Positions 2,541 through 60,786 of a stretch of 64,000 nucleotides of DNA are shown here, piece after piece. The notes below the pieces were generated by a model. The model searched no databases and had not been told where the DNA came from. It saw only the letters and a program-made list of their open reading frames with translations. The stretch is from Patescibacteria group bacterium (lineage in GTDB: Bacteria > Patescibacteriota > Minisyncoccia > Phycocordibacterales > SIBU01), in the NCBI GenBank assembly GCA_040390045.1, contig JAZJZC010000001.1:36345-100344 (forward strand). Direction: 5' to 3'. Every line of letters starts with the position of its first letter. The stretch's first letter is position 1. Both the position numbers and the translations under genes were made by a program.

Positions 2541-3572
2541 CTACGCAATAGAATAGACTCCATCCTTGGTCTTCTTGAAAAATTTAGGATTTTGCAAATT
2601 GACAATGATGGTGTTCTCTTTGACATACCTCTCCTTCATCACCTTATCGATAATTTGTTCTCGGTTGAGCGGTCCATTGCTCTCTAAAACCTTCCTGATG
2701 ACATCTTTGACAACTCCTGACATGTATCCCCATTCGGCGAGCGCGTAGAGGCCTCGGCCAACGAGTACAAATCGAGGATCTTTGATGAGTTCGTTGTGGG
2801 TAGTGGCAATATGAGCTTTCTTACCGAAAAGTTTTTCAATCGACTTTGCGACTTCTCTAAAGTGAATTGGAGAACCGTGTCGGCGAATGACCAAAAAGGC
2901 GTAATCGCGCATGCCTTTGGCGTGAATATTTGGAGAAGATTTAAGTCCCCATTCACCAAGCGGATTTTTACCAATAGTTTTTGAAAGTTCAAGCCAGCGC
3001 TTGATCACGTCATTCTTAGATTTATAGTCATCAGAAATATCTTCAACATGCGTGAGAAAGTGCGCAATAATATCGAGTTCAGAAACCAAATCTTTGTCAG
3101 AAAGATTTTTATAAAGTTTTTTCAAAGCGTCGTGAACTTTTTTGGCTAGTGAATCACTGACATGCCAGCGGTGTTTGAAATTTTCATCTTCTTTTTCGCG
3201 TTTAAATGGATCACCCAAAACCAAAAGCAACTGAATGTGATTTTGAGTGCTCTTGTCTTTGGCGACGTACTCAAGAAAATTTTCCTCGCTAATAATGCCA
3301 CCAAGCTTATGAAAAAGTGCTTCCAACTCGGAAAAAACGCCTTTTTCTTTTGCGTAGGACTCAGCTCGCTTGATGCTGTGAACGGCATAATTTTCAATCT
3401 GTCTGACTCGTTCGCGGGTGATACCATATTTCTTGCCGATGGCTTCTAGGGTCATCTTTTTGGAATCTTTGTCGAGTCCATAGCGACTGACAATCACATC
3501 CCGCGCGCGATCAGGCAAGATGGCGAGAAGCCTCTTGACCACTTGTTTTGGATTGAAAGTAATGACGTTCAT
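2541..3572 (-). CDS. Sigma-70 region-4 (HTH) domain protein with a C-terminal winged-helix-like domain, putative transcription factor
   Basis: N-terminal VIVSRYGLDKDSKKMTLEAIGKKYGITRERVRQIENYAV matches sigma-70 region 4. No sigma region 2 is present. Confidence 0.6.
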   Translation of the reverse strand: MNVITFNPKQVVKRLLAILPDRARDVIVSRYGLDKDSKKMTLEAIGKKYGITRERVRQIENYAVHSIKRAESYAKEKGVFSELEALFHKLGGIISEENFLEYVAKDKSTQNHIQLLLVLGDPFKREKEDENFKHRWHVSDSLAKKVHDALKKLYKNLSDKDLVSELDIIAHFLTHVEDISDDYKSKNDVIKRWLELSKTIGKNPLGEWGLKSSPNIHAKGMRDYAFLVIRRHGSPIHFREVAKSIEKLFGKKAHIATTHNELIKDPRFVLVGRGLYALAEWGYMSGVVKDVIRKVLESNGPLNREQIIDKVMKERYVKENTIIVNLQNPKFFKKTKDGVYSIA

Positions 3573-10408: not shown

Positions 10409-13400
10409 CTACTGAGTCGTGCTTGTTGCCGTGGTAGTCGAAACGTCAGCGTGCGAAAACAAACTCACAATCCAACGCCAAGGTTTGAGAATAATTGAAC
10501 CGGCAAAGTTTCTGAGGCCTTCGAAGATATTCTTAGGTGATGTTGTACTTGCTGTATCATCTGCAACCGTAGAAGAAGAATTTGAACTATCGTCACTAAC
10601 GGTGGTCGCTGGTACCGTTCCTGTAGTGTTGGCGGAAAAAATATTGGTTTTTCCTGCATCAACTGTTTTTGTTGGATTGTAGGCGTTTCCCCAAAGGGTA
10701 CTCAACATCATCGCTCTGAAATCATTGATTTCAATTTGTTCCGCAACCGTAACAGGAAATGGTCGCTGACAGTAAATTTCGTTTACTTTTTTCTTGGTTG
10801 TGATGTAAGTAAATTCAGTTGGTCCAGGAAGCGCCCATGGTGCCAAGATATCATCCCAATATTTTACTTGGAAGGCATCCACACCAACAATAGTTGGATC
10901 ATCGTAGATTCCAGTGATTTGTAGATCCTTCATGCCTTCAAAATCTCGAAGGAAGACCTGCAATTTTCGGACTTCAACTGGATTATTGTTCCAGCCTTTT
11001 TTCAAGTGATCGTACAAGTAGTAACATACGCCTGGTGTAACGGGAGTCGATGAAGCAAAGGCTCCTAATACAACGCCGTTTACAGGTCCTACGTTAATTG
11101 GAACCGGTGGGCCGTTGCTACCTCCTCCGCCCCCACCACCTCCCCCTCCTCCACCGCCACCTCCACTTGTGCCTCCACAATTAGTACATGGAGCTGGATT
11201 TACTGTGAATGAAACACTTGAACCGTTGTTTGTTGAATCGGTATCAGTTTGAGATGAACTTGCGTTTGCAGAGTTAGTAATAGTTGTACTTTCGGTGCCG
11301 AGTTTAACTTTGGCTTTCAAAGTAAGGCTCGTACTTGAACCGTTAGCCAAGTTTCCAACCGTCCACAGGCCAGTGGTTGTACTGTAGCTACCAATAGAAG
11401 TACTTGCGGAAATAAATTCCAATCCTGCAGGTAACACGTCAGTGACTGAAACTCCTGTCGAAGAAAGTGTTCCGAGGTTCGTTAATACGAGAGTGTAAAT
11501 AATTTCATCGCCAACGCTCGCTGTGGTTTTGTTAGAAGTTTTGGTAATACTCAAGTTGACACCTCCACCTCCACCACCGCAGTTCGAAGTACAACCAGGT
11601 GTGTTTACAGTAAATGATACGGCTCCAGTATTGTTTGTCGAATCAGTATCAGTTTGTGTTGAACTGGCGATAGCGGTGTTGGTAATAGTTGAACCTTCGG
11701 TTCCCGCTTTTACCTTAGCTTTCAAAACTAAAGTTGTAGTTGAGCCATTCGTCAAATTTCCGATAGTCCAAAGACTGGTTGTGGTGCTGTAACTACCGAG
11801 CGATGTGCTGGCGGAAATAAATTCCACACCGGTTGGCAGAATATCGCTCAAAGAAACTCCTGTTGAAGAAAGTGTTCCGAGGTTTGTCAGTACAATGGTG
11901 TAGATAACTTCATCACCGACATTTGCCGTAGTTTTATTGGCAGTTTTTGTGACACTCAAGTTAACGCCACTGGTTCCTCCGCCACCACAGTTTGAAGTAC
12001 AGACGACTGGATTTACGATGACGTTCACTGTCGCGGTGTTGTTTGAAGAATCGGTATCAATTTGAGTTGAAGTCGCCGCTGCAATGTTGCCAATAGTGAG
12101 GCCTTCGTTCCCTGCCTTTATTGTAGCTTTCAAAATAAGGGTCGTGGTTGCATTTTTCGCCAAATTTCCAATGGTCCAGAGTGAAGTTGAGGTGCTGTAA
12201 CTACCAATACTCGTGCTCGCTGAAACAAATTGCAACTGCGATGACAAAACATCAGTGACAGAAACTCCGGTTGCGGCATCTGGCCCAGCGTTTGAAACAG
12301 AGATCGTGTAGGTGACTTGATCGCCGACATTAGCGTTTGTTTTATCAGCAATTTTGGTAAGACCGAGGTTAACACCAGAAATTGGAACTGGAACAACGAT
12401 AACATTTCGCGTAACTGAAGCACTCAAACCTCCCGAGTCAGTGACCGTGTAGGTGAGTGTGTACGTGCCAAGCGTGCTCGTGCTGACAGTTCCGGTAACC
12501 ACAATTTGTGATGTGAGATTGCCATCTTCGAGGTCAGTGGCAGTAGCTCCGGGATCGGTAAAGACATGACCCAAGATAACAGTGATTGGATTGGCACCGA
12601 CAAGCGTAATAACCGGCGCGGTGTTTGTTGGTGGATTAACTGGACCATTAGGACAGGTAGAAGCGGTTGTGGTGTACGAATAGGTTACCGCAACGGAACT
12701 TGAAGCGGTAAGCAAAGGGAAATAACTGTAGGGGCCGGTAGTAAAATCTCCTATCAAATTGAGAGTTGAGAAAGATTGTCCTGAAACATCTTCGGTAACA
12801 TTTACACCACCGGTTGTCGTGCTAACGAAACTTAAAAGTTCTGTTGGGTCAGTAATCGTCAACAAGGCATCACTTTGAGAATATGTGCTTGTGCCAGTAC
12901 CGTATGAACTTGCGCCAGCATAATCGAGCGCGCCATCGGCGGCATTAACTGTAACTGGACCGAAGTAACTGGTGAAATATAATTTTGATAGATGTCCCGG
13001 CACACTAAACGTGCTGGTCGCCAAAAGACCGCCAGAAATTGAAATCGGGTGGGTAGCAATGTTCTCTACCTTTTGATTGATATTTGCCTCAGCGTAGTGC
13101 TTGAGAGAAAGAGAAGTCAGAGTTCCAAGAGCAGGATCGAAATATTTAATTTTTCCTTGCTTGGTAAAATCAGCCTTAGTTGTTGGGAAAATTAAAGTGT
13201 CAGAGTATTGGCAGGAAATTGGAGCAGGAGGTGGAGGCGGCAAAGGATTACAAACAGCGTTAATCTCCGCATCTCCATCGTTTAACATACTACCTCCACC
13301 TAAAGCAGAAATATATCGGAAGGCCTGTGGAAACAACCAAATGGTTGTGTCGTTGTCAGAAATCCAGTTTGTTGGGCCATCAGGGTAGGTTCCAATTTCT

Positions 13401-14449
13401 ATACCAGAAGTCCAAGGACCAGCTGGACTATCGGAACCAAAAAGGGCACCCTCGTGAGCTTCGTTTGGAGTTTCTCCGTGGTCAATAGATGGAACAAGAT
13501 AGACCATGTTGCTACTGGTTGCAGTAGTAGTTCCCATATCCCAAACTCCCCTTCCTGGATAACCACTAAATCCTGCAGGATTGCTAAACACCTGAACCCA
13601 TTTATGATCGATAAAATCTCCGGAATGTGGATCGCTGTTGTATACCCAATCATAAGCAGTAGGACTGGTTTCCTCACCAGTTACCATTCCCGTAGTGAGA
13701 AGAACTCCACAAGAACCGATATTCAAGGTTGTTGGTGCGGTTGGGCAAGGAGCAGTGCTGGTGAAAGAATAAGTTACTACAACAGAATTCGAAGCATAGA
13801 TCAAAGGAAAATAACTCCATGGTCCTGAAGGAGTGCTTGAAGCGATGTTGAGGAATGAGAACGACTGACCGGAAACATTTTCGGTAATATCAACGCCACC
13901 AGCACCAGAATTAACATAATTTAAAAGTTCAGCAGGATCGTTGATTGCAATCGAGGTATCGTTTTGAGAAAAAGTTGTGGTACCAGTGTCGTACGAACTT
14001 GAACCAGCATAATCGAGAGCTCCATCGTACGCGGTTATGTCGACTGGACCGAAATTACTAGAAAAAAGCAAATTTGAAGTATGTCCTGGAAGACTCAATG
14101 TGCTGGTTGCACTGAGGCCACCACCACTTGAAATTGTATGATCAGAGACGTTTTCTGCCTTCTGGCTTACATCAACGATAGAAATGTGCTTGATAGAAAG
14201 ACTTGTGAGAGTACCGAAGGCGGGATTAAAGTACTTGATTTTTGCCTGCTGTGTAAAATCAGCCTTCGCAACGCCGAAAACAATGGTGTCAGAAAGCTGA
14301 CAGGAATTGCTTGTTGTCGTTGCCGCACGTACAAGGAGGTTTGAAGATGGCACAGCCAAAATCATTAGGGACAAAAACATGACGAAAAGCGATGTGGTGA
14401 TTTTTTTCTTGAGATTGCTGATCTTGCTCGTTGATAAATATTTTTTCAT
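10409..14449 (-). CDS. Giant secreted cell-surface protein: signal peptide, two duplicated ~190-aa N-terminal domains, an Ig-like domain, three tandem DUF11 repeats, a poly-Gly linker, and a C-terminal PG_binding_1-like domain
   Basis: N-terminal hydrophobic signal. GVNLGLTKIADKTNANVGDQVTYTISVSNAGPDAATGVSVTDVL... repeated three times (DUF11). GGGGGGGGGGGGGGGG linker. C-terminal VRKLQVFLRDFEGMKDLQITGIYDDPTIVGVDAFQVKY resembles a peptidoglycan-binding domain. Confidence 0.85.
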   Translation of the reverse strand: MKKYLSTSKISNLKKKITTSLFVMFLSLMILAVPSSNLLVRAATTTSNSCQLSDTIVFGVAKADFTQQAKIKYFNPAFGTLTSLSIKHISIVDVSQKAENVSDHTISSGGGLSATSTLSLPGHTSNLLFSSNFGPVDITAYDGALDYAGSSSYDTGTTTFSQNDTSIAINDPAELLNYVNSGAGGVDITENVSGQSFSFLNIASSTPSGPWSYFPLIYASNSVVVTYSFTSTAPCPTAPTTLNIGSCGVLLTTGMVTGEETSPTAYDWVYNSDPHSGDFIDHKWVQVFSNPAGFSGYPGRGVWDMGTTTATSSNMVYLVPSIDHGETPNEAHEGALFGSDSPAGPWTSGIEIGTYPDGPTNWISDNDTTIWLFPQAFRYISALGGGSMLNDGDAEINAVCNPLPPPPPAPISCQYSDTLIFPTTKADFTKQGKIKYFDPALGTLTSLSLKHYAEANINQKVENIATHPISISGGLLATSTFSVPGHLSKLYFTSYFGPVTVNAADGALDYAGASSYGTGTSTYSQSDALLTITDPTELLSFVSTTTGGVNVTEDVSGQSFSTLNLIGDFTTGPYSYFPLLTASSSVAVTYSYTTTASTCPNGPVNPPTNTAPVITLVGANPITVILGHVFTDPGATATDLEDGNLTSQIVVTGTVSTSTLGTYTLTYTVTDSGGLSASVTRNVIVVPVPISGVNLGLTKIADKTNANVGDQVTYTISVSNAGPDAATGVSVTDVLSSQLQFVSASTSIGSYSTSTSLWTIGNLAKNATTTLILKATIKAGNEGLTIGNIAAATSTQIDTDSSNNTATVNVIVNPVVCTSNCGGGGTSGVNLSVTKTANKTTANVGDEVIYTIVLTNLGTLSSTGVSLSDILPTGVEFISASTSLGSYSTTTSLWTIGNLTNGSTTTLVLKAKVKAGTEGSTITNTAIASSTQTDTDSTNNTGAVSFTVNTPGCTSNCGGGGGGVNLSITKTSNKTTASVGDEIIYTLVLTNLGTLSSTGVSVTDVLPAGLEFISASTSIGSYSTTTGLWTVGNLANGSSTSLTLKAKVKLGTESTTITNSANASSSQTDTDSTNNGSSVSFTVNPAPCTNCGGTSGGGGGGGGGGGGGGGSNGPPVPINVGPVNGVVLGAFASSTPVTPGVCYYLYDHLKKGWNNNPVEVRKLQVFLRDFEGMKDLQITGIYDDPTIVGVDAFQVKYWDDILAPWALPGPTEFTYITTKKKVNEIYCQRPFPVTVAEQIEINDFRAMMLSTLWGNAYNPTKTVDAGKTNIFSANTTGTVPATTVSDDSSNSSSTVADDTASTTSPKNIFEGLRNFAGSIILKPWRWIVSLFSHADVSTTTATSTTQ
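11270..12385 (-). repeat. Three ~360-bp nucleotide-level tandem repeats encoding the DUF11 modules of the surface protein
   Basis: Near-identical stretches (e.g. ccaatagaagtacttgcggaaataaattccaa / ccgagcgatgtgctggcggaaataaattccac) recur at ~360-bp spacing. Coding, not CRISPR. Confidence 0.7.
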
Positions 14450-15716: not shown

Positions 15717-16433
15717 TTACTCTGAGTAGCCAGTGAATTCATCGGTTCTGATATTTTCATCAGATATGTTGAGCTCCAACAAAATTTCTCGAATTCGAAC
15801 AATAAAAGGGATCGGACCTGAGATGTAAAACGACTGTTCACCTGGGTTTTTGATAAAGGACATTAGAAACTTCTTATCCAGCCGGGGCTTGATTGTTTTT
15901 TTTGTAGAACTTTTTGCAGTTTGTAGGGCTGTGAATGAAAAATTTTTATGCTGCTTAGCGTAGGATAAGAAATCATCTAAAAAAACTGCCGATGTATCGT
16001 GCCTGTAGGAATACATAAAGATAATATTCCGATCCTCATTCTTAAAAAAGGCTTCCTTCAAAATACTGGCAAAAGGCGTGACACCGATCCCTGCCCCAAT
16101 AAAAACTAAGGGCTTTGAAAGAGTTTCTCTCAGAAAAAAGGTACCGAACGGTCCCTCTAGTTTCACTCGCTGACCAACTCGAAAAGAGAAAAGCAGCTTT
16201 TTAAAATCACTTTGAGTATTTTTGGTAACAATATAGATTGTCTTTTCGTGAGGAGCTGAAGAGAGTGTAAATGTTCTTGTGAGATTCTGACTCTCTAAAC
16301 CTTTTGGCAGAGGAAGCGTGAAGTCTGCACACTGACCGGCTTTGTACTTGAAACCCTTTGGCTTTTCAAAAACAAAACAGGTCGCATCTTTTGCAATTTC
16401 TTTTTTTTCAATTAGTCGAATTCGGTAGGACAT
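15717..16433 (-). CDS. Ferredoxin-NADP reductase-superfamily oxidoreductase (FAD-binding plus NAD(P)-binding domains)
   Basis: RTFTLSSAP (RxYS-like FAD motif), GPFGTF, VFIGAGIGVTPFASIL NAD(P)-binding glycine motif. Confidence 0.7.
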   Translation of the reverse strand: MSYRIRLIEKKEIAKDATCFVFEKPKGFKYKAGQCADFTLPLPKGLESQNLTRTFTLSSAPHEKTIYIVTKNTQSDFKKLLFSFRVGQRVKLEGPFGTFFLRETLSKPLVFIGAGIGVTPFASILKEAFFKNEDRNIIFMYSYRHDTSAVFLDDFLSYAKQHKNFSFTALQTAKSSTKKTIKPRLDKKFLMSFIKNPGEQSFYISGPIPFIVRIREILLELNISDENIRTDEFTGYSE

Positions 16434-16466
16434 AACTTTAGAGTAAATAAAATCTAACCTGCTGGA

Positions 16467-16600
16467 TGCAATTCGAGGCGCAAACGATTTTGCGACTAAA
16501 ACGTAGGTCGCGCTTCAATGGACGTTGCGCGACACGATTCCGACTGAATCGACATTGCGGAAGCAAACGGAGCTGGCGACAATGAAATGCGCCAAAGGCG
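16467..16600 (+). ncRNA. Candidate structured RNA element, copy X1 (paralog of 36519-36670 and 49132-49283)
   Basis: ~85-90% identical to the X3 core over the first 100 nt. Conserved hairpins gtcgcgc-ttcaatggacgtt-gcgcgac and cgattc-cgact-gaatcg. It lies between two minus-strand genes and abuts the ABC transporter stop codon. Confidence 0.45.
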
Positions 16601-16606
16601 GATGTT

Positions 16607-18412
16607 CTACTCTTGGATGAAACCACCAGCTTGAAGATTCCACAACTTAGTATACAAACTCGCGCTGTTCTTCAGTAAATCATCATGACTTCCCTCCTCA
16701 ATCACCTTTCCTTTCTCAAGCACAATAATTCTATCCATTTTTCGAATGGTTGAAAGTCGGTGAGCAATGACAATAACTGTCTTACCTTTCATCAGTTTAT
16801 CGAGCGCATCTTGAATAAGAGACTCGGAGTGAGAATCGAGACTTGAGGTGGCTTCATCAAGAACTAAAATCGGTGCGTTTTTAAGGATAGCTCGAGCAAT
16901 TGCCACGCGTTGACGTTCCCCACCAGAAAGCTTAATGCCACGCTCTCCGACATACGTGTCGTATTTTTGCGGCAACCCAAGCGCAAACTCATCACAATGC
17001 GCCAATCGTGCCGCTTCGTACACTTCAGCCTCGCTCGCCTCTCTTCGTCCGTAGCGGATATTTTCAAGAAGGGTTCTGTGAAAAAGAATCGGATCTTGTG
17101 GCACCAAACTGACATTTTTTCGTAAACTTTCCTGCGTAACATTTCGAATCTCCTGCCCATCAATTGAAATTCCCCCAGCGGATACATCGTACAGACGGAG
17201 TAACAATTTTACGAATGTTGATTTACCCGCGCCAGACGGGCCGATCAAAGCCACCTTCTCCCCTGCGGCAATTTTTAGATTTAAACCTTGGAGAACAATC
17301 TGTTCGCCGCCGAAAGAAAAATCAACATTATGAAAGTCGACTGAACCTGAGGGAACAGAAAGTATGCTGGCATCTGCCGCATCCAAAATGTCCTGCGGCA
17401 ACTTCAAAATATCAACCATTTCCTTGGCATCGGCAATCGATTCGTACATACTGCGAATAATTCTACTGATGCCCCAGAGCTTACCGTTGAGTCCTAACAA
17501 ATAGACTTGGATCAAGACAAACGAGCCGACAGTTATGGCTCCGGTCTGCCAATATTTGATGGCAAAATAGAATAACAAAAATTCAATGAAAATAAGTAGA
17601 AGTGCTTGCCCTGTTTCCACGCCATTTTGCAGGTTCCAGGCAAATCGTGTCAATCGAGCTTGCTCATTGGTCACTTCGCGAAAATATTTTGATTCGGATT
17701 TCACACCCGTAAAAAGATGAATGGTGTTTTGATTTGTGATGGCGTCAGCCAAAACACCTGTCGTAAAGGAGTCCATAGCGGCACGTTTGACATCATATTT
17801 TAATTTCCAACGGGAAAAAAGATAATTAAAAAGCAAAAATACAAAAACCCAAGCGAGCAAAACTTCAGTAATGATGTGGCTGGTAAACCAAAGTACGAAA
17901 CAGATGCCGATCACCTGCACCACGAGTGGCAAAATTTCATAGACAATTCTATCCTGAAAAACCTCGAAGGCCCGGGCAAAACGGTTGACGCGCTGAACCA
18001 AAGAGCCGGTAAAGTTGTTGGCATAAAAAGAGTAGGAATGATTGATCATGTACTCAAAAGCTTGCTGACGCAGTCGGGCAATGACTCTCGAATCGCAATA
18101 GGAGGAGGAGAATGTGGCAATGCGCCACCCTACCCACTGGATGATATTTAAAACCAAGATAAGAAAGATGATACTAAATAATTGTGGACTTTTATCGGAA
18201 ACGGAGAGAGTGCCGAGATTTAGAACATCGAAGAAATTCTTATAATAAATAGGAATGACAACTGACACAGCGTTGGCAAAAATCGCGCTCGAAAAAATTA
18301 TGAAAAGCGAAAGTTTGTTTGGCCGAAGACCACGCCAAAAAGCCTTGAGTACATCGAAGGTTGTAGCAATCCCGGTGCCCTTATGTTTAGGTTTCGTGTC
18401 GAAGGCTAGCAT
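16607..18412 (-). CDS. ABC exporter, fused permease/ATPase (MsbA/ABCB-type)
   Basis: Six-TM N-terminal domain, GPSGAGKST Walker A, LSGGERQRVAIARAIL signature, ILVLDEATSSLD Walker B. Confidence 0.9.
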   Translation of the reverse strand: MLAFDTKPKHKGTGIATTFDVLKAFWRGLRPNKLSLFIIFSSAIFANAVSVVIPIYYKNFFDVLNLGTLSVSDKSPQLFSIIFLILVLNIIQWVGWRIATFSSSYCDSRVIARLRQQAFEYMINHSYSFYANNFTGSLVQRVNRFARAFEVFQDRIVYEILPLVVQVIGICFVLWFTSHIITEVLLAWVFVFLLFNYLFSRWKLKYDVKRAAMDSFTTGVLADAITNQNTIHLFTGVKSESKYFREVTNEQARLTRFAWNLQNGVETGQALLLIFIEFLLFYFAIKYWQTGAITVGSFVLIQVYLLGLNGKLWGISRIIRSMYESIADAKEMVDILKLPQDILDAADASILSVPSGSVDFHNVDFSFGGEQIVLQGLNLKIAAGEKVALIGPSGAGKSTFVKLLLRLYDVSAGGISIDGQEIRNVTQESLRKNVSLVPQDPILFHRTLLENIRYGRREASEAEVYEAARLAHCDEFALGLPQKYDTYVGERGIKLSGGERQRVAIARAILKNAPILVLDEATSSLDSHSESLIQDALDKLMKGKTVIVIAHRLSTIRKMDRIIVLEKGKVIEEGSHDDLLKNSASLYTKLWNLQAGGFIQE

Positions 18413-20516: not shown

Positions 20517-20575
20517 CGTAACATGCCCGCCCGAACGGAACGAGTCCGCTCGGTACGGGCGGGGAACATGAAGCA
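20517..20575. repeat. GC-rich REP-like two-tier hairpin element (copy 1). Inverted copy at 33483-33535
   Basis: catgcccgcccgaacggaacgagtccgctcggtacgggcggggaacatg. Outer stem cccgcccg/cgggcggg, inner stem cgag-tccg-ctcg. Its RC is nearly identical to 33483-33535. Confidence 0.65.
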
Positions 20576-20597
20576 TGGGGAAAAAACAGTTAAATCT

Positions 20598-33432: not shown

Positions 33433-33482
33433 AATTCAAATTATCAGGGTTCTTTTCTCTTATGTTCCGTGTTCCATGTTTC

Positions 33483-33535
33483 CTGTTCCCCGCCCGTACC
33501 GAGCGGACTCTTGTACGTTCGGGCGGGCATGTTCT
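33483..33535. repeat. GC-rich REP-like hairpin element (copy 2, inverted relative to 20517-20575)
   Basis: ttccccgcccgtaccgagcggactcttgtacgttcgggcgggcatg. Near-identical to the RC of 20517-20575. Confidence 0.65.
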
Positions 33536-36432: not shown

Positions 36433-36460
36433 TTGACTCTCAAATCCAGTAGCGTATAAT
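36433..36460 (+). promoter_or_regulatory. Sigma-70 consensus promoter TTGACT-N16-TATAAT driving the X2 leader and the glutaredoxin-like gene
   Basis: -35 at 36433-36438, -10 at 36455-36460. Confidence 0.7.
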
Positions 36461-36518
36461 GAATCAACTAGGTCGCAAAAAAGTTTTTCAAAAATAAATT
36501 TAACCACAGAGCTAAAAA

Positions 36519-36670
36519 CTTCCAGATTTGAGTGCAGTTTGAGGCGACCGCGAGTACGTGACTAAGCTGTGCGTCGCGTCTCAATTGACGTTACGCGACG
36601 CGATTCCGTCGGAATCGACTGCGCAGGAGCGCACGGAGCGGGCAACGAAGAAATGCACCAAATATGGAAG
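36519..36670 (+). ncRNA. Candidate structured RNA element, copy X2, in the 5' leader of the glutaredoxin-like gene
   Basis: 152 nt enclosed by closing stem cttccagatttg / caaatatggaag. Internal hairpins cgtcgcgt-ctcaattgacgtt-acgcgacg, cgattc-cgtcg-gaatcg and tgcgc-agga-gcgca covary with X1/X3. Confidence 0.5.
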
Positions 36671-36683
36671 TTATATCAACAAA

Positions 36684-36920
36684 ATGAAAAAAGTTACGAT
36701 TTATAGTACACCTACCTGTCACTTCTGCCACATGGCAAAAGACATGTTCAATGCCAACGGCATACAGTTTACGGATAAAAACGCCGCAGCTGATCCTGTT
36801 GCCCGCAAAGAAGCAATCGAAAAGTCAGGACAACTCGGCGTGCCGGTCATCGATATTGATGGAGAAATCATTGTGGGATTTAATGAGCCTAAACTTAAAA
36901 AATTGCTGGGTATAAAATAA
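36684..36920 (+). CDS. Glutaredoxin / NrdH-like redoxin (78 aa)
   Basis: MKKVTIYSTPTCHFCHMAKD (CxxC), GVPVIDIDGEIIVGF thioredoxin-fold tail. Start is placed at the internal ATG 36684. Confidence 0.8.
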   Translation: MKKVTIYSTPTCHFCHMAKDMFNANGIQFTDKNAAADPVARKEAIEKSGQLGVPVIDIDGEIIVGFNEPKLKKLLGIK

Positions 36921-39465: not shown

Positions 39466-39755
39466 AATTTGTTAGTTATTCAGTTGTCAAAAATCTGCTT
39501 TTGTTTTCGGAAACTTCAGATTTGAGCGAATTGCGCCAAACATGAAGTTACCTAAAACAAAACGAGTCTGGGTTACATTCCAGAGCTCGTTTCTAATATC
39601 GTTGGAGAGAAGCTTTAACGATAGCAGGAATCAGCTCTGGACGCAGTGCCCCAGAAGCCAAAGAAAAAGAAGTTGCTATAGTTATTGCCCGATTTCATAT
39701 TCGCCATATTACACAACGGTTTACAAAATGTCAACAAAGGTTCTGACTCCCCTCC

Positions 39756-39862
39756 GATACGAAATGCGGGCCAACGAAAATACGAAATTATACGAAAACC
39801 GTAGCGACGGTAAAAAGTTTTCGTATTTTTTCGTATTTTCGTACCCTTTCGTATGTTCGTAT
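39756..39862. repeat. ATACGAA/TTCGTAT repeat element (copy B), an ~90-bp imperfect palindrome centred on ccgtagcgacgg, in the DAHP synthase promoter region
   Basis: gatacgaaatgcgg...cgaaaatacgaaattatacgaaaacc | ttttcgtattttttcgtattttcgtaccctttcgtatgttcgtattt. Confidence 0.7.
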
Positions 39863-40684
39863 TTACCTCTCCTTGTAATAGACCTTATTCCCAAACCTCA
39901 AATCAACATATTCAACGTTTTTAAAAACTTTGCCATCGCTAAATTCACTACTTACCAAAAGTGTTTGAAAGTTTTTCAAAACTAAAGAAAAATCAGCGTC
40001 GCGGGCAAAAATAATTTTCTGACCTCCGGAAAAATCAGCCTCAAAATCTAAATCAGGGCGTTCTCGAAAAGCTGTCACCTTAAACCCTGCGCTTGAAAGT
40101 TGTTCAGCAAAATCTAACAGTTTTTTAAAATAATCAGGCGAAACATATTGCAATTTCATCGGTTCCGCTTTTTCTTCGGCAGAATAGAATGTAATAAATT
40201 CGAGTGACGTATCTTCCATTTGGTAAAACGGACTAAAAATTAAACCGGTGTCATCCAAAAAGTAACACTGTTCCGGTTTTCCCTGACACCACAAAGCTTT
40301 GGGGCTTCGCTCGATGACACTGACCGTAATGGCGTGAGAATTTTTATAGCTAACCCCAACATGAGCGACCTGAGAATACGAATCAAGAATAGTTGATTCT
40401 ATTTTTTTGGCCGGATAGAAAAAAATATTTGATTTCGGAATCGTGAAAAAATATCGTCCCTGTAAAAATCCTTCCGTCGTTGACGCAATGTCTGCAGTTG
40501 CGAGGGACGTGGCTCCGACCACTTCAACATCAGAAATGGTAATAAAATTAAGACCTGATAGATAATAGACTGAGCCCCACAAGCCACCGAAAAAAAAGAC
40601 CGCGAGAATTATTCTACCGATAATCACCTTGCGGCGTTTCGCTTTTAGACGCGCGGATTTTAGATTGTATGTTCTGCCATTCAT
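39863..40684 (-). CDS. Cell-division protein FtsQ/DivIB-like (N-terminal TM plus POTRA)
   Basis: Basic N-terminus, one TM, then ISDVEVVGATSLATADI...GRYFFTIPKSNIFFYPAKKIES resembling a POTRA domain. Confidence 0.5.
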   Translation of the reverse strand: MNGRTYNLKSARLKAKRRKVIIGRIILAVFFFGGLWGSVYYLSGLNFITISDVEVVGATSLATADIASTTEGFLQGRYFFTIPKSNIFFYPAKKIESTILDSYSQVAHVGVSYKNSHAITVSVIERSPKALWCQGKPEQCYFLDDTGLIFSPFYQMEDTSLEFITFYSAEEKAEPMKLQYVSPDYFKKLLDFAEQLSSAGFKVTAFRERPDLDFEADFSGGQKIIFARDADFSLVLKNFQTLLVSSEFSDGKVFKNVEYVDLRFGNKVYYKER

Positions 40685-47596: not shown

Positions 47597-49111
47597 ATGG
47601 CAACTATTAAGGAAATAACCAGCTTAATGCAAAACCCCGCCCCTGCTGATATTGCGCTCATTACTAAAGCGTATGTTTTTGCTGAAACGGTTCATGCAAG
47701 CCAAAGACGCATCACCGGCGAACCCTATTTTGACCATCTTTTTGAAACCGCGAAAACACTTGCTGAGCTCGGCATGGGAGCCATTACGATTTCTGCGGGA
47801 CTGCTCCATGATTCTATTGAAGACGTTAATGTCACACCGGAAACAATTGAAGAAAAATTTGGAAAAGAAATTCGATTTTTAGTTGAAGGCGTCACCAAAC
47901 TTGGAAAACTCCATTACAGCGGTAGCGAACGTTACATTGAAAGTTTGAGAAAACTTTGCGTCGCCATGTCGAAAGATGTTCGTGTGCTCATCATCAAACT
48001 TGCCGATCGACTGCATAACATGAAATCGATTGAGGTACTTCCAAAGGAAAAACGTGATCGCATCTCACTCGAAACTCTCGAAATCTACGCTCCACTTGCC
48101 TACCGCATCGGCATCAGAAAAATCAACCGAGAATTGGAAGATTTGGCATTTCCGCATGTTAAACCGGAAGAATATGAAAAGGTAAAAAAATTATTGAAAA
48201 CCAAAAGCCACGAAAAAGTGCGCCACTTGGAAAAATTTCATAAATCGATAATGAGTCAACTTGCCTTGGCGGGAATGCGAAACGTCAAAACCAGTTACCG
48301 ACTGAAGGGTCTCTACAGTCTCTACCGAAAATTACTTCGCAAAGAATGGGACATAGAAAAAATTTACGACATTTCAGCACTAAGAATTATCGTGCCGACC
48401 GTGAGCGATTGTTATGCCGTTCTCGGTCTCATCCATAGCATTTGGAGACCGCTACCCGGGCGTATCAAGGATTACATCGCTCTGCCAAAATCAAACAATT
48501 ATCGAGGCATTCACACCACCATCTTCACCGGCGACGGTGGCATTCTTGAAGTGCAGATCCGAACTGAAGAAATGCACCGCAAAACTGAATACGGTATGCA
48601 CTTTGAATACAAAGAAATTATCAACAACCCAAAACCAAACTTCGGCAGTATTTCCTGGGTTAAGAAATTTTTCCCTTCGTTTATTTTAACCAACAACGAA
48701 ATCAAAAATGAACAGCAAAATCCGGAAAAAATCGTTCCGTCATGGATTCGAGAATTGGGAGAATACAATAAAGAAGTAGCGGGCACAGACAATCTCGTAG
48801 AAGATTTAAAAACTGACTTTTTCGGCGATCGCGTATTCACCTTCACACCAAAAGGTGACGTGATCGACTTGCCACTTGATTCGAGCACTATCGATTTTGC
48901 CTACGCTGTCCATTCCGACATCGGTGATCACATTTCGGGAGCCAAGGTCAATGGAAAATTGGTCTCGATAGAAACCATATTGAAAAATGGCGATATTGTG
49001 GAAGTTGTTACAAAACAAAGTTCTCGCCCAAGTCTCAAGTGGCTTGAGGTGGCGAAAACTGCGCTAGCAAAAAAGAAAATAAAGGACTATCTTGAGTCGG
49101 AGAAGAAGTAA
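47597..49111 (+). CDS. rel: Short bifunctional RelA/SpoT-homolog (HD hydrolase, (p)ppGpp synthetase, TGS; no ACT domain)
   Basis: HD motif (HASQRRITGEPYFDHLF...LLHDSIED). Synthetase (RIIVPTVSDCYAVLGLIHSIWRPLPGRIKDYIALPKSNNYRGIHTTI). TGS (FTFTPKGDVIDLP...DFAYAVHSDIG). Confidence 0.9.
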   Translation: MATIKEITSLMQNPAPADIALITKAYVFAETVHASQRRITGEPYFDHLFETAKTLAELGMGAITISAGLLHDSIEDVNVTPETIEEKFGKEIRFLVEGVTKLGKLHYSGSERYIESLRKLCVAMSKDVRVLIIKLADRLHNMKSIEVLPKEKRDRISLETLEIYAPLAYRIGIRKINRELEDLAFPHVKPEEYEKVKKLLKTKSHEKVRHLEKFHKSIMSQLALAGMRNVKTSYRLKGLYSLYRKLLRKEWDIEKIYDISALRIIVPTVSDCYAVLGLIHSIWRPLPGRIKDYIALPKSNNYRGIHTTIFTGDGGILEVQIRTEEMHRKTEYGMHFEYKEIINNPKPNFGSISWVKKFFPSFILTNNEIKNEQQNPEKIVPSWIRELGEYNKEVAGTDNLVEDLKTDFFGDRVFTFTPKGDVIDLPLDSSTIDFAYAVHSDIGDHISGAKVNGKLVSIETILKNGDIVEVVTKQSSRPSLKWLEVAKTALAKKKIKDYLESEKK

Positions 49112-49131
49112 ATACTATCAATCCAGAAAAA

Positions 49132-49283
49132 CCTCGGGAATCAGATGCAATTCGAGGCGCGAGCGATTTTGCGACTAAAACGTAGGTCGCGTTTCAATGG
49201 ACGGTACGCGACATGATTCCGACAGAATCAACGTTGCAGGAGCAAAATTGTGAAGCAACGAAGAAGTGCGCTGATTCCCGAGG
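49132..49283 (+). ncRNA. Candidate structured RNA element, copy X3, filling the rel-parB convergent intergenic region
   Basis: 152 nt enclosed by a perfect 13-bp closing stem cctcgggaatcag / ctgattcccgagg followed by tttt. The core is ~85-90% identical to X1 over the first ~100 nt. Confidence 0.5.
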
Positions 49284-49285
49284 TT

Positions 49286-50266
49286 TTAGAGGCTAAAGTT
49301 TTTGAGGGAATATAGACTTTCATCTTCCTCCTCCGCTTTAATTTCCTCCTTACTTCTATCGTCAAGTGGAATTTCCGAGTTTGGCGGAACCGCTTCAGAA
49401 CCATCAGGAGATGCCAACAAAGCCTTGACCGCAAGATTTTTAGAATTCATCAAGTCAACAATAACATTGAGGTCTTCGTCGGAAAAGAAATCAATAGTGA
49501 TCTTGCCGCCAACTTCTTTTTTTTCAATCCTCACTCGAGTTCCCAACGACTCCTTCAATTTAGCTTCAAGCGCCAAAAGTTCAGGATCAACATCGGCATT
49601 GTGTTTGCGAACTTTATCGAGCGCGATTTTGCGAGCAATTTGTTCGGCCTCTCGAACCGTTATTTTTTTGATTAAGACTTCCTTAAAAAGAGTGAGTTGT
49701 TCTTCCGGCCGGCCTTCAAGCATAAGGAGTGGTCGCGTATGTCCTTCAGAAATTTTACCTTCGGAAAGCGCATTGAGCATCTCTTCTGGTAGCGCCAGAA
49801 TTCTCAAAGTATTTGAAACATAGACACGGCTCTTCCCTACCTTGTCACCAATTTCGTTGTGCTTAAATTTAAATTCAGTAGCCAATCTCTGAAAAGCCCG
49901 TGCCCGATCAACAGCATTTAAGTCTTCACGTTGTAAATTTTCAATGATGGCAAGCTCCAACTTCTCACGGTCTGTCTGTTCACTCGAACGAATAATAACT
50001 GGGACCTGATCAAGCCCCGCTAACTTCGACGCACGTAATCTTCGCTCACCTGAAATCAATTCGTACTCAACCAAAAGCCCTCCTTCCTCTTTCATTTTTT
50101 CATGCCGAGTAACCACAAGCGGTTGAAGTACGCCATACATTTTTATCGAATCAGCTAAATCGCGAAGTTTGGCTTCATCGAATTCATGTCGCGGCTGATA
50201 TGGATTTGGATAAATTTTAGTGACGTCTATCCAGAAAATTGAATCGCTAAAAAATTGTGAAGGCAT
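49286..50266 (-). CDS. parB: Chromosome partitioning protein ParB
   Basis: ParB box (VLQPLVVTRHE...ELISGERRLRASKLAGL), HTH, C-terminal dimerisation region. Confidence 0.9.
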   Translation of the reverse strand: MPSQFFSDSIFWIDVTKIYPNPYQPRHEFDEAKLRDLADSIKMYGVLQPLVVTRHEKMKEEGGLLVEYELISGERRLRASKLAGLDQVPVIIRSSEQTDREKLELAIIENLQREDLNAVDRARAFQRLATEFKFKHNEIGDKVGKSRVYVSNTLRILALPEEMLNALSEGKISEGHTRPLLMLEGRPEEQLTLFKEVLIKKITVREAEQIARKIALDKVRKHNADVDPELLALEAKLKESLGTRVRIEKKEVGGKITIDFFSDEDLNVIVDLMNSKNLAVKALLASPDGSEAVPPNSEIPLDDRSKEEIKAEEEDESLYSLKNFSL

Positions 50267-58095: not shown

Positions 58096-60786
58096 TTACT
58101 TCACCACCTCCTCAACTTCATCCTTAACAAGATCAATCTTTACCGGCTTTGTGGACTTTGGCTTCTCAACATCAAACGTAAACACGCCATCTTTGATATC
58201 AACTTTCACCACAGAGCCGTCCCCTACCGTTCGGGCGATAATCTGCGACGCCACAGGGGTTAGAATTTTATTTTGAATGATTCTCTTTAATGGTCGCGCA
58301 CCGTACTGCGGGTTGTATCCCTCTTTCGCCAAGTGCTCGAGCACTGCAGGCGTGACCTCAAGTCCAATATTTTTAGCAGCCAGTCGCTCACGGACATGTC
58401 CCACCTGAATTTCCACAATCTTGTTGATCGCTTCCTGACTCAAAATATCAAAGACGATAATATCGTCGAGTCGGTTGAGAAATTCCGGTCGGAAATAATC
58501 TTTGAGGCTTGCCATGACTTTTGACTTGGCGCTTTCATAGTCAGCTTTTTTATTTTCGCCTGAAGCAAAACCAATTCGCTCCATTTTGTCGATGTACTGA
58601 GCGCCGATGTTCGACGTCAAAATAATAATGGTATTGCGGAAGTTCACCGAACGTCCCTTTGCATCCGTCAGCTTACCGTTGTCGAAAATTTGCAGAAGAA
58701 TGTTAAACACTTCCGGATGAGCTTTTTCAATTTCGTCGAACAGAATCACCGCATACGGCCGATGTCGTACAAGCTCCGTCAAATTTCCACCTTCTTCATG
58801 TCCGACATAACCCGGTGGCGCGCCAATAAGTTTACTGACCGAATGTCTCTCCATAAATTCCGACATGTCAATTCGAATGAGCGCCTTGTCATCATTGAAC
58901 ATAAATTCAGCCAAGGCCTTAGTGAGCTCGGTTTTTCCAACGCCCGTAGGACCCAAGAAAATAAATGAGCCAATTGGTCTGTTGGGGTCCGCCACACCAG
59001 CACGCGAACGTTTGATGGTATCTGAGATTTTCGCCACCGCTTCATCCTGTCCGACAATTCTTTTTTTAACTTCCTCTTCCATTCGAGAAAGTTTTGAAGC
59101 TTCCTCTTCGAGCATGCGCATAACAGGAATCCCCGTCCACTTGGCCACAATTTCGGCAATATCCGACTCCATAATTTCCTCCTTGAGAATTCTTCGCGAT
59201 GTCTGCAACTTCTTCAATCTTTTTATTTTGATATCCAAATCTTTTTGCAGTTCTGGAATTTTTCCATAGCGAATTTCCGCTGCCTTCGACAGGTCAGCTC
59301 GCGCCTCAGCACCCTCAGCCTCGAGACGCATTGACTCCAAACTTTTCTTAATTACTTTAATTTGCTGTAACGTTTCCTTCTCATTCTTCCACTTCAATTC
59401 AATTTCTGAAGTTTTTTCTTTCAAATCAGCAATTTCTTTTTCAATTTTCTTGGTTCGAGTTTTCGCTTTCTTTGAAGTTAGCGCCTCTTTCTTTAGCGCC
59501 TCTCGTTCAATTTCGAGTCGCATCACTTTTCGATGCGTCTCCTCGAGAACCGGCGGCATGTTTTCCAATGAAATTTTCAACGATGAAGCAGACTCATCAA
59601 TCAAGTCCACAGCTTTGTCAGGTAAATATCGATCAGTAATATAGCGCGCCGATAATGTAACCGCCGCCACAATAGCGTCGTCAGTAATGTGCACACCGTG
59701 ATACAACTCATACTTTTCTTTGAGACCTCGCAAGATAGCAATAGCATCTTCGAGCGATGGTTCGGACACATACACCGGCTGGAAGCGTCTCGTGAGTGCT
59801 GGATCTTTTTCAATATGTTTTTGGTACTCCTTCAAAGTTGTCGCTCCGATCGCGCGAAGTTCCCCGCGAGCCAAGGCAGGTTTTAACATGTTTGACGCGT
59901 CCATCGAACCTTCCGCTGCTCCCGCTCCGACAATTGTGTGAATCTCATCAATGAAAAGAATAATCTTGCCGTCAGACTTTTCAATCTCCTTCATAATATT
60001 TTTCAATCGCTCTTCAAACTCTCCGCGATATTTTGTTCCGGCGATCAATAGTCCAAGGTCAAGAGAAACCAACTCTTTATCTTTCAAAGACTCTGGAACA
60101 TCTCCCGATGCCATCCGCAGAGCTAGACCTTCCGCAATCGCAGTTTTTCCTACGCCGGCTTCACCGATCAAGATCGGATTATTTTTGGTGCGCCTCGAAA
60201 GAATTTGAATAATTCTCGAGGTTTCATTATCTCTACCAATGACTGGATCAAGTTTATTTTCTCGCGCGAGCCCAGTCAGGTTTCTGGTATATTTTAGAAT
60301 TGATTTCAAACGTTTTGGCGCAACAGTGTCAGCCGGTCGAGTATTTTTTAAATCTTCAAACACGCGAATGACATCCGCTTTATCAATCCTAAAACGTGAC
60401 AACAATTCTCGTGCCGCGCCGGGAATATCGAGCATGGCGATAAAAAGATGTTCGGTAGAAACAAATTCATCTTTAAGAGACGCCGCCACCTTCTGAGAAT
60501 TTTCCAAAGTCTGCGCCAACTCGGGGGTCAAATAAATTTGGTACGACGGTGAAAGTGTAGCCGAAGCTTCAGCACCCTCAATCGCTTCCAAAATTGAATC
60601 GGTCATGAGCACCGTATCAACTTCCAATTTTTCCAAAATGGAATTGACCATGCTTTCTTCTTGCAAAATCAGCGCCGCTAAAAGATGCACAGGGTTGACG
60701 TGATTTTGTCCGCGTTCAATAGCAAGCTCATGCGCTCGCCTGATGGCTTCTTTGGCTTTAGTTGTGAAATGGTTAAATGGGGGCAT
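58096..60786 (-). CDS. clpB: Chaperone ClpB (AAA+ disaggregase)
   Basis: N-domain, NBD1 ([15 protein letters not shown]), long coiled-coil middle domain, NBD2 ([15 protein letters not shown]), sensor-2. Confidence 0.95.

Follow-up and report, generated by a model that had tools for sequence, protein, structure and literature searches.

Three copies of a structured repeat in a Patescibacteria genome are probably old insertions of a small MITE-like mobile element

In this work, we analysed three related copies of a structured repeat, named X1, X2 and X3, in a stretch of 64,000 nucleotides (hereafter the window) of contig JAZJZC010000001.1 from a Patescibacteria group bacterium (assembly GCA_040390045.1). 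Its closest Rel relatives belong to Liptonbacteria and Taylorbacteria, that is, to the Parcubacteria. The host is most likely an ultra-small groundwater bacterium, and the copies are most likely old jumping DNA and not a redox-sensing regulatory RNA. All three lie on the plus strand, X1 at 16448-16609, X2 at 36514-36675 and X3 at 49127-49288, the ends being set by alignment with the wider family. X1 is found between two minus-strand genes, an FNR-like gene (15717-16433) and an ABC transporter gene (16607-18412), and is antisense to both; a flavodoxin-like quinone reductase gene adjoins this neighbourhood. X2 is located in the 5' untranslated region (UTR) of a glutaredoxin gene, grx (36684-36920, ATG at 36684), behind a sigma-70-type promoter (TTGACT-N16-TATAAT, 36433-36460, plus strand) which belongs to grx and is not part of the element. 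X3 occupies the spacer between the convergent genes rel (47597-49111, plus strand) and parB (49286-50266, minus strand). A preliminary description of the window had proposed this promoter ahead of X2 and the glutaredoxin gene, the FNR-like and quinone-oxidoreductase neighbours of X1, and a U-run behind X3 on the 3' side of rel; all were confirmed. No promoter was predicted at X3, where the U-run is present, neither a promoter nor a terminator was predicted on either strand at X1, and the three copies show no consistent promoter or terminator around them.

Alignment of X1, X2 and X3 with MAFFT revealed a common core, and the core between the two terminal arms measures 127 nt in each of them. 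X2 and X3 had been described as equal in length, at 152 nt; they are indeed equal, but this is due to the common 127-nt core and not to a constraint on length. A repeat search gave 89% identity between X1 and X3 and 70% between X1 and X2 over 103 nt, in agreement with the earlier estimate of about 85-90% for X1 and X3 and a diverged X2, and the mutual divergence of the three copies ranges from 11 to 30%. A 27-nt pattern describing hairpin A, explained below, has exactly three matches in the window, all on the plus strand (0.00 expected), and scanning the window with R2, the covariance model of the scaffold, retrieved only X1, X2 and X3, at 143-178 bits. The best-preserved copy is X3 (177.6 bits, -76.5 kcal/mol, z = -9.5), X2 scores 142.6 bits with a fold z of -4.7, and X1 has kept the core and lost the terminal helix (144.3 bits, fold z = -1.55). 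The proposal of three paralogous structured copies on one strand is thus borne out.

Each copy contains two adjacent hairpins and, in X2 and X3, a closing helix (P1). Hairpin A is formed by GTCGCG plus Y and R plus CGCGAC around a 13-nt loop, and hairpin B by GATTC and GAATC. In X1, hairpin A (16507-16533) matches the 27-nt pattern and hairpin B (16535-16551) reads CGATTC-CGACT-GAATCG. In X2, hairpin A (36573-36599) has the loop variant TCAATTGACG and is followed by CGATTCC-GTC-GGAATCG (36601-36617), and in X3 the corresponding hairpins are GTCGCGT-TTCAATGGACGG-ACGCGAC (49186-49212) and TGATTC-CGACA-GAATCA (49214-49230). The P1 arms of X3, AAAAACCTCGGGAATCAG (49127-49144, after an A-run) and CTGATTCCCGAGGTTTTA (49271-49288, before TTTT and overlapping the parB stop codon at 49286-49288), form 17 of 18 pairs; those of X2, AACTTCCAGATTTG (36517-36530) and CAAATATGGAAGTT (36659-36672), form 12-14 bp with one G/A mismatch; X1 has no real stem. 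A small-protein reading was rejected, as six-frame translation of X1-X3 gave stops or non-conserved frames and no open reading frame (ORF) kept across the copies. In X2 an open frame runs through both hairpins into grx, and database protein coverage ends at the Grx domain. The template and variable repeats of a diversity-generating retroelement were also rejected, because the differences between copies are not adenine-specific. With Rfam 15 (4227 models) in gathering mode, only five tRNAs were found in the whole window, and in E-value mode (E <= 1-10) no match to the element was obtained for X2, for 11 loci carrying the two hairpins or the scaffold, for the minimal forms or for L068, L069 and L085 (L numbers designate the other sequences analysed). 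The family is therefore absent from known Rfam families, as had been suggested.

The hairpin-A pattern was used for one genome scan and one metagenome scan, which together yielded 42 loci. Most of them hold only a small unit composed of hairpin A and the AU-rich hairpin B, which we call the A/B module. The full scaffold seen in X1-X3 is rarer, and was found in L001, L014 and L033 and twice in L039. It extends from GGATGCARTTCGAGGCG to AAGAARTGCGCC and is enclosed by a long closing helix, the terminal inverted repeat (TIR) of 17-19 bp folding as P1. The core consensus reads GG-A-TGCA-RTTCGAGGCGCGAGCGAGG ... GCGAC-YAA-(P5) ... GGAGCAAAC ... GCAACGAAGAARTGCG-CC, and element sizes range from 124 to 305 nt. 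Alignment of 11 sequences over the whole core has 32 invariant columns, and one model scores the family at 109-178 bits. In the window copies the A/B module sits on stem P5. The scaffold also occurs without it, in L039b and L069, where P5 is capped by a small loop; A/B is therefore optional and is plugged into the scaffold as a module. Further optional parts are a module of about 85 nt in the P4 loop (L014, L070-72, L092) and a CCGUCNACAGGU-plus-hairpin module (twice in L001 and L033, once in L092). In L033, the aminotransferase gene in front of a scaffold copy has a T-box-leader-like match on its upstream side (3179-3365, minus strand), which stays below the gathering score (41.3 bits, E = 3e-6).

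Helices P1 (19 bp), P2 (UGCA/UGCG), P3, P4 and P5 were scored on the 11-sequence alignment. In the scaffold 86% of the cells are paired, against 33-42% in slid controls, and 18 of the 36 pairs have changed on both sides, against 10.4 in shuffles (0/500 as high), although it must be taken into account that the inverted repeats of DNA elements yield the same covariation signal. Covariation was observed in P1, P4 and P5. The closing helix covaries as had been claimed, with double changes in 14 of the 23 P1 and P2 pairs and 89% of cells paired. P3 (TTCG/CGAA) is weak, one position being unpaired in 4 of 11 copies, and X1 contributes five A/C and six other mismatches to the scored pairs. For the A/B module, 29 independent metagenome copies bear out the covariation of helices A and B: 98-99% of cells are paired and 32 show double changes, against 10.8 in shuffles (0/500 as high). 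Four of the six hairpin-B pairs have changed on both sides, and at the seventh pair of hairpin A 17 copies have U-A and 10 have C-G; as the metagenome pattern left both free, this covariation is unbiased. A third helix, C, which had been proposed together with these, is present in the three window copies, but across the family it finds no support, as 123 of 500 shuffles are equally good and X2 is the sole source of double changes. A switchable fold based on gcgac/gtcgc pairings does not hold as a conserved feature either, because members without hairpin A (L039b, L069, L085) still keep GCGAC.

The topA-rel-parB regions of relatives were collected through Rel homologues and the grx regions through Grx homologues. 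No element occupies the site of X3, the rel-parB spacer, in four relatives: P0009 (L073-76), with 25 nt forming a perfect 15-bp bidirectional terminator, P0021 (L077-79; 29 nt), P0017 (L083-84; 27 nt) and P0029 (L080-82; 4 nt). The same spacer holds a minimal element in L069 of P0002, a module-D form in L070-72 of P0002, where the flanking genes are 99.9% identical to those of L069, a form of about 300 nt in P0003 (L092) and only a 3'-end remnant in P0006 (L093). In P0004 it contains an unrelated stem-closed element of about 270 nt (L068:11600-11870, within a 391-nt spacer) with a 17-bp stem, CCTTGAATTACGAAACT/AGTTCCGTAATTCAAGG, and no Rfam match, and this spacer has therefore been colonised repeatedly by such elements. 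One relative has two tandem Rel paralogues.

Direct signs of movement come from recent copies. The element at L069:5431-5557, in the rel-parB spacer, and the one at L086:9555-9681 are identical at 127/127 positions, arms included; the latter was reached through Grx homologues, in assemblies from the same samples as L069. The L069 copy is flanked by the 5-bp direct repeats ATGCT/ATGCT, the L086 copy by ATATA/ATATA, and a third copy with the same arms (L039b, L039:410-533) by TATTA/TATTA. The repeats are exact at all three independent insertions, and a 5-nt flank match would arise by chance with a probability of 0.002 per site. Moreover, the L086 copy lies within a minus-strand ORF, and removal of the element and one repeat restores a HAD-like ORF of 126 amino acids. 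More than 100 full-length homologues (120-128 amino acids) of this restored ORF were found, and its alignment with them passes the junction without a gap (...AIPVDYINDNPMY...); the Pfam match of the ORF is weak alone, and it was the homologue search that settled the question. Two P5-loop alleles (TTATAAC and TAGACC) and the presence of the ~85-nt module distinguish L069 from L070/L072 and L086 from L087, in spite of flanking genes that are 99.9% identical. As the same two alleles are found at either locus, paralogues may have exchanged sequence, or the assemblies may be chimeric.

At the level of the family, these data describe a miniature inverted-repeat transposable element (MITE): it is short and non-coding, has TIRs specific to subfamilies, generates a 5-bp duplication, and shows dispersed identical copies and empty sites. 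The preliminary description had set a MITE aside because the stems of X2 and X3 are dissimilar, and had named target duplications and shared TIRs in copies elsewhere as what would speak for one; copies in relatives have both. The arms of 11 members align in register, with an outer consensus of approximately TA-RRA-CTT...AAGT-YYTA, and are therefore homologous and not unrelated. Furthermore, the arm subtypes recur at unrelated loci: the type TAGGACTTACG... is common to L039b, L069-72 and L086-91, and the X2 type to X2, L085, L092 and L093. An origin as a repetitive extragenic palindrome (REP/REPIN) or as a palindrome-associated transposable element derived from IS200/605 was rejected, given the 5-bp duplications and the lack of a conserved tetranucleotide flanking the 5' side of hairpin A.

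According to these data, we consider it likely, with a probability of roughly 0.7, that X1, X2 and X3 are old, diverged insertions of a small, non-coding, non-autonomous MITE-like mobile element of a Parcubacteria sub-clade. They would be old because no target duplication remains and because of their mutual divergence. In relatives the element moves, by excision or by copying, to new sites where it generates a 5-bp target-site duplication, and it lands in spacers of convergent genes, in 5' UTRs or even inside genes. X1-X3 would themselves have been mobile and would have arrived in the same way long ago, their target duplications having since eroded, and they may now be passengers in neighbouring transcripts. 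At the X3 site, the helix and U-run could replace the simple bidirectional terminator found there in relatives, and the helix probably still terminates transcription of rel and parB. X2 would be carried along in the grx leader, and X1 would be decaying. As to X3, the only other assembly with the exact Rel of the window, L067 (a Logan contig of 1646 bp), stops 62 nt past the rel stop codon, inside the element, as would be expected of an assembly broken at a repeat.

Several observations weigh against an interpretation as simple mobile DNA. Within +/-4 nt of their aligned ends, X1-X3 have no exact 5-nt flank repeat, nor a one-mismatch repeat outside A-rich flanks. About 0.7 Mb of related DNA yielded no autonomous insertion sequence with matching ends, the inverted repeats of this type at a spacing of 0.6-3.5 kb being only AT-rich chance pairs, and the origin of L069 and L086 in one organism is suggested by their shared samples. 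The inner half of P1 differs between subtypes and yet is complementary in each copy, unlike the ordinary decay of TIRs, which points to a selected hairpin; either the hairpin is selected, as mRNA or as a single-stranded DNA intermediate, or the subtypes follow different transposases. There are 33 G-U pairs against 13 A/C mismatches, and the P2 pair U21-G290 is kept in 10 of 11 copies; it is therefore the plus strand that folds, be it as RNA or as single-stranded DNA. Finally, the core is 70-90% identical while Rel is about 78% identical between genomes, so that the core must be under some constraint.

Strand asymmetry, a conserved core and covariation in P1, P4, P5 and A/B would also be expected of a structured RNA family that benefits the host, either a trans-acting small RNA or ribonucleoprotein or an exapted element, in which the closing helix, the P4/P5 junction and a single-stranded 3' segment are selected as RNA and mobility is the means of spread. 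The very stable folds of X3 and X2, the lack of an Rfam match and the optional peripheral modules, which many large structured RNAs also have, would fit as well. However, orthologous sites are only sporadically occupied, one copy destroys a conserved gene, X1 is antisense between co-oriented genes with no predicted promoter, and the promoters and terminators around copies are inconsistent. Decay is seen in place of conservation, X1 being without P1 and the X2 orthologue in L085 without about 70 nt, and we regard such an RNA family as unlikely. This orthologue also bears on the idea, part of the preliminary description, that the glutaredoxin gene and the redox genes near X1 have a redox-responsive cis-regulatory leader or riboswitch. 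L085 is the closest relative (80% nucleotide identity in the Grx coding sequence) and carries the element in exactly this position, downstream of the same promoter, so X2 was inherited; yet the lost segment includes the 3' strand of P4, P5 and A/B, and the score falls to 62 bits against 143 for X2, so that the core is not kept at this locus. In addition, the grx orthologues of L080 and L086 have element-free leaders of 73 and 92 nt, the grx promoter type being kept in relatives with and without the element, and there is no conserved tie to one gene family, other members lying beside rel/parB, an aminotransferase gene, the HAD-like gene and others. Although X2 is in a grx leader and X1 is near FNR-like and quinone-reductase genes, the antisense placement of X1 completes a picture in which a redox link is not conserved and in which the novel non-coding RNA or redox cis-regulator first proposed corresponds to a family that is mobile in relatives; we give a redox leader almost no credence. 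In relatives, the DnaB gene next to grx contains an intein with a LAGLIDADG endonuclease (L086:10279-13056, L080:8515-11539).

The closing stems could alternatively be pre-existing terminator hairpins into whose loops only the core of about 127 nt was inserted, the arms being derived from the target. Judged by eye, the 5' arm of X3 agrees with the simple terminator at the empty L073 site in about 14 of 18 positions, and the stems of X3 and L001 are preceded by an A-run and followed by a T-run. Nevertheless, identical arms have travelled to unrelated loci (L069/L086 and L039b; the X2 type in L085, L092 and L093), the target duplications lie outside the arms and most copies are without a T-run. 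A target origin of the arms is thus contradicted for the recent copies and very improbable as a whole, and would at most be a special history for X3. The remaining alternative places function in the A/B module, as a cis-acting 5'-UTR or translation-initiation element which the window elements merely carry, as passengers or titrating decoys. It draws on the position of the module upstream of start codons, always in the sense orientation, as detailed below, and on its presence in unrelated elements with long stems (L016, L017). In X1-X3, on the other hand, no start codon stands beside the module, and members without A/B have moved recently, so the module is not needed for mobility. Near-identical nested modules before different genes (L011 and L019, contigs of one metagenome) look like dispersal and not like orthologous conservation. 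We find it improbable that this alternative explains X1-X3, and we retain their interpretation as old MITE-like insertions.

The A/B module deserves attention in its own right. It consists of a 7-bp A stem, a conserved 13-nt loop (YTTCAAWGGACGNTR) and an AU-rich second hairpin with a CGNN loop. The stems covary around an unchanged TCAAWGGACG loop, other A stems around the same loop being GCCGGG/CCCGGC, GCCGCGC and GTCGCCCC/GGGGCGAC. Of the 37 distinct loci, at least 13 have an ORF whose start follows hairpin A by 17-20 nt and hairpin B by 1-4 nt, the distance from hairpin A being 45-46 nt in nested forms. These ATGs are true starts, since Pfam models begin at residues 1-16; the genes confirmed in this way are secE, hpf, recA, nusA (twice), gap, clpB, mscL, a class-V aminotransferase gene and vanW. 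The metagenome loci with A/B alone upstream of confirmed starts are L006, L013, L027, L030, L012, L022, L019, L041, L003 and L018. The two NusA proteins are only 45% identical and both genes have the module. Shine-Dalgarno sequences are nearly missing from the genome, a purine-rich motif being found at -5 to -20 in 3 of the 39 genes (long ORFs) of the window; examples of this scarcity are the stretches upstream of 36684, 47597 and 58096-60786. A TATAAT-like box 7-10 nt from the ATG of several window genes suggests leaderless mRNAs.

We tentatively suggest, as a possibility well short of an even chance, that A/B is an undescribed cis-acting RNA element marking or controlling translation starts in Parcubacteria that lack Shine-Dalgarno sequences, and that mobile elements, X1-X3 among them, spread it or act as decoys. 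If so, mobile DNA would distribute a translation-control module through streamlined genomes. The module might function at translation starts or in the mRNA, might be a very small mobile cassette, or might combine the two. An upstream ORF starting from the ATG in the loop was rejected, as the loop variants TCAATTGACG, TCAATCGACG and TCAAAGGACG have no ATG, and so was a promoter inside A/B, by inspection, because the spacing of the hexamers is wrong (about 19 nt) and the -10-like TAAAAT lies just 3 nt from the ATG. In viral contigs the hairpin-A pattern had no match, and the 24 viral-contig matches of GGATGCARTTCGAGGCG (L043-L066) were all rejected as chance hits within coding regions. A/B was also seen inside other stem-closed elements with scaffolds unrelated to X1-X3, at L017:4389-4546 (minus strand) and L016:670-822 (plus strand), one example of this type being closed by an 18-bp stem, AAAACGTGAGGGTGAGCG/CGCTCACCCTCACGTTTT.

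The window contains further repeats. A second dispersed repeat, a GC-rich hairpin of about 57 nt (AACATGCCCGCCCGAACG...CGGTACGGGCGGGGAACA), occupies two intergenic spacers at 20524-20580 (plus strand) and 33470-33527 (minus strand), with 95% complementarity over 37 nt. Clusters of short repeats of the TTTTCGTAT type are found at 2406-2505 and 39750-39866; they are mutually inverted, 37 kb apart, and 84% complementary over 58 nt. An ORF of 1346 amino acids (10409-14449) contains three tandem repeats of about 405 nt (11183-12295; 66-72% identity) and encodes a repetitive large protein of the surface type.

A literature search gave no account of MITEs, nor of a motif like A/B, in Patescibacteria, and structured MITE-like repeats such as these seem not to have been reported from this phylum before. 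The genomes of Patescibacteria are tiny and thought to be streamlined, and an active family of structured miniature transposons that enters terminator spacers, leaders and genes shows that mobile DNA is still turning over in them. The element also accounts for contig breaks and spurious ORF calls, such as the break of L067 at X3 and a 48-amino-acid "gene" in L070. For RNA discovery there is a caution, as clean covariation, strong folds and the absence of an Rfam match were here properties of a mobile repeat. The A/B motif may matter more than the mobile element: its fixed distance from the starts of housekeeping genes, in a lineage without Shine-Dalgarno sequences, makes it a testable candidate for organising translation initiation or mRNA stability.

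The family can be set against what is generally known of Correia, ERIC, BOX/RUP, REP/REPIN and attC sequences. The Correia elements of Neisseria (CREE/NEMIS) are likewise non-coding MITE-like repeats of about 100-160 bp whose TIRs fold into a long hairpin when transcribed; they are intergenic, including 5' UTRs and convergent spacers, vary between strains and can affect termination or mRNA stability. However, Correia ends are conserved in sequence over 26 bp and duplicate TA, whereas the family described here makes a 5-bp duplication, varies its inner terminal helix by compensation and has a multi-helix core with optional modules; its sequence is unrelated and it belongs to another phylum. ERIC of enterobacteria and BOX/RUP of pneumococcus are similar in being short imperfect palindromes in transcribed intergenic DNA, with strain-variable copies and a modular build (long ERIC forms have inserts at fixed sites, and BOX is made of A, B and C boxes). 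They share no sequence similarity with the present family, in which the 5-bp duplication and the gene disruption show classical transposition and A/B lives independently at start codons. The conservation of pairing over sequence in part of the inverted repeat and the strand-asymmetric tolerance of G-T are reminiscent of REP/REPIN and attC, and would fit recognition as folded single-stranded DNA. Yet the movement of REP/REPIN and IS200/605 leaves no target duplication and needs RAYT or TnpA, and attC sites form part of gene cassettes beside an integrase; neither situation was observed here.

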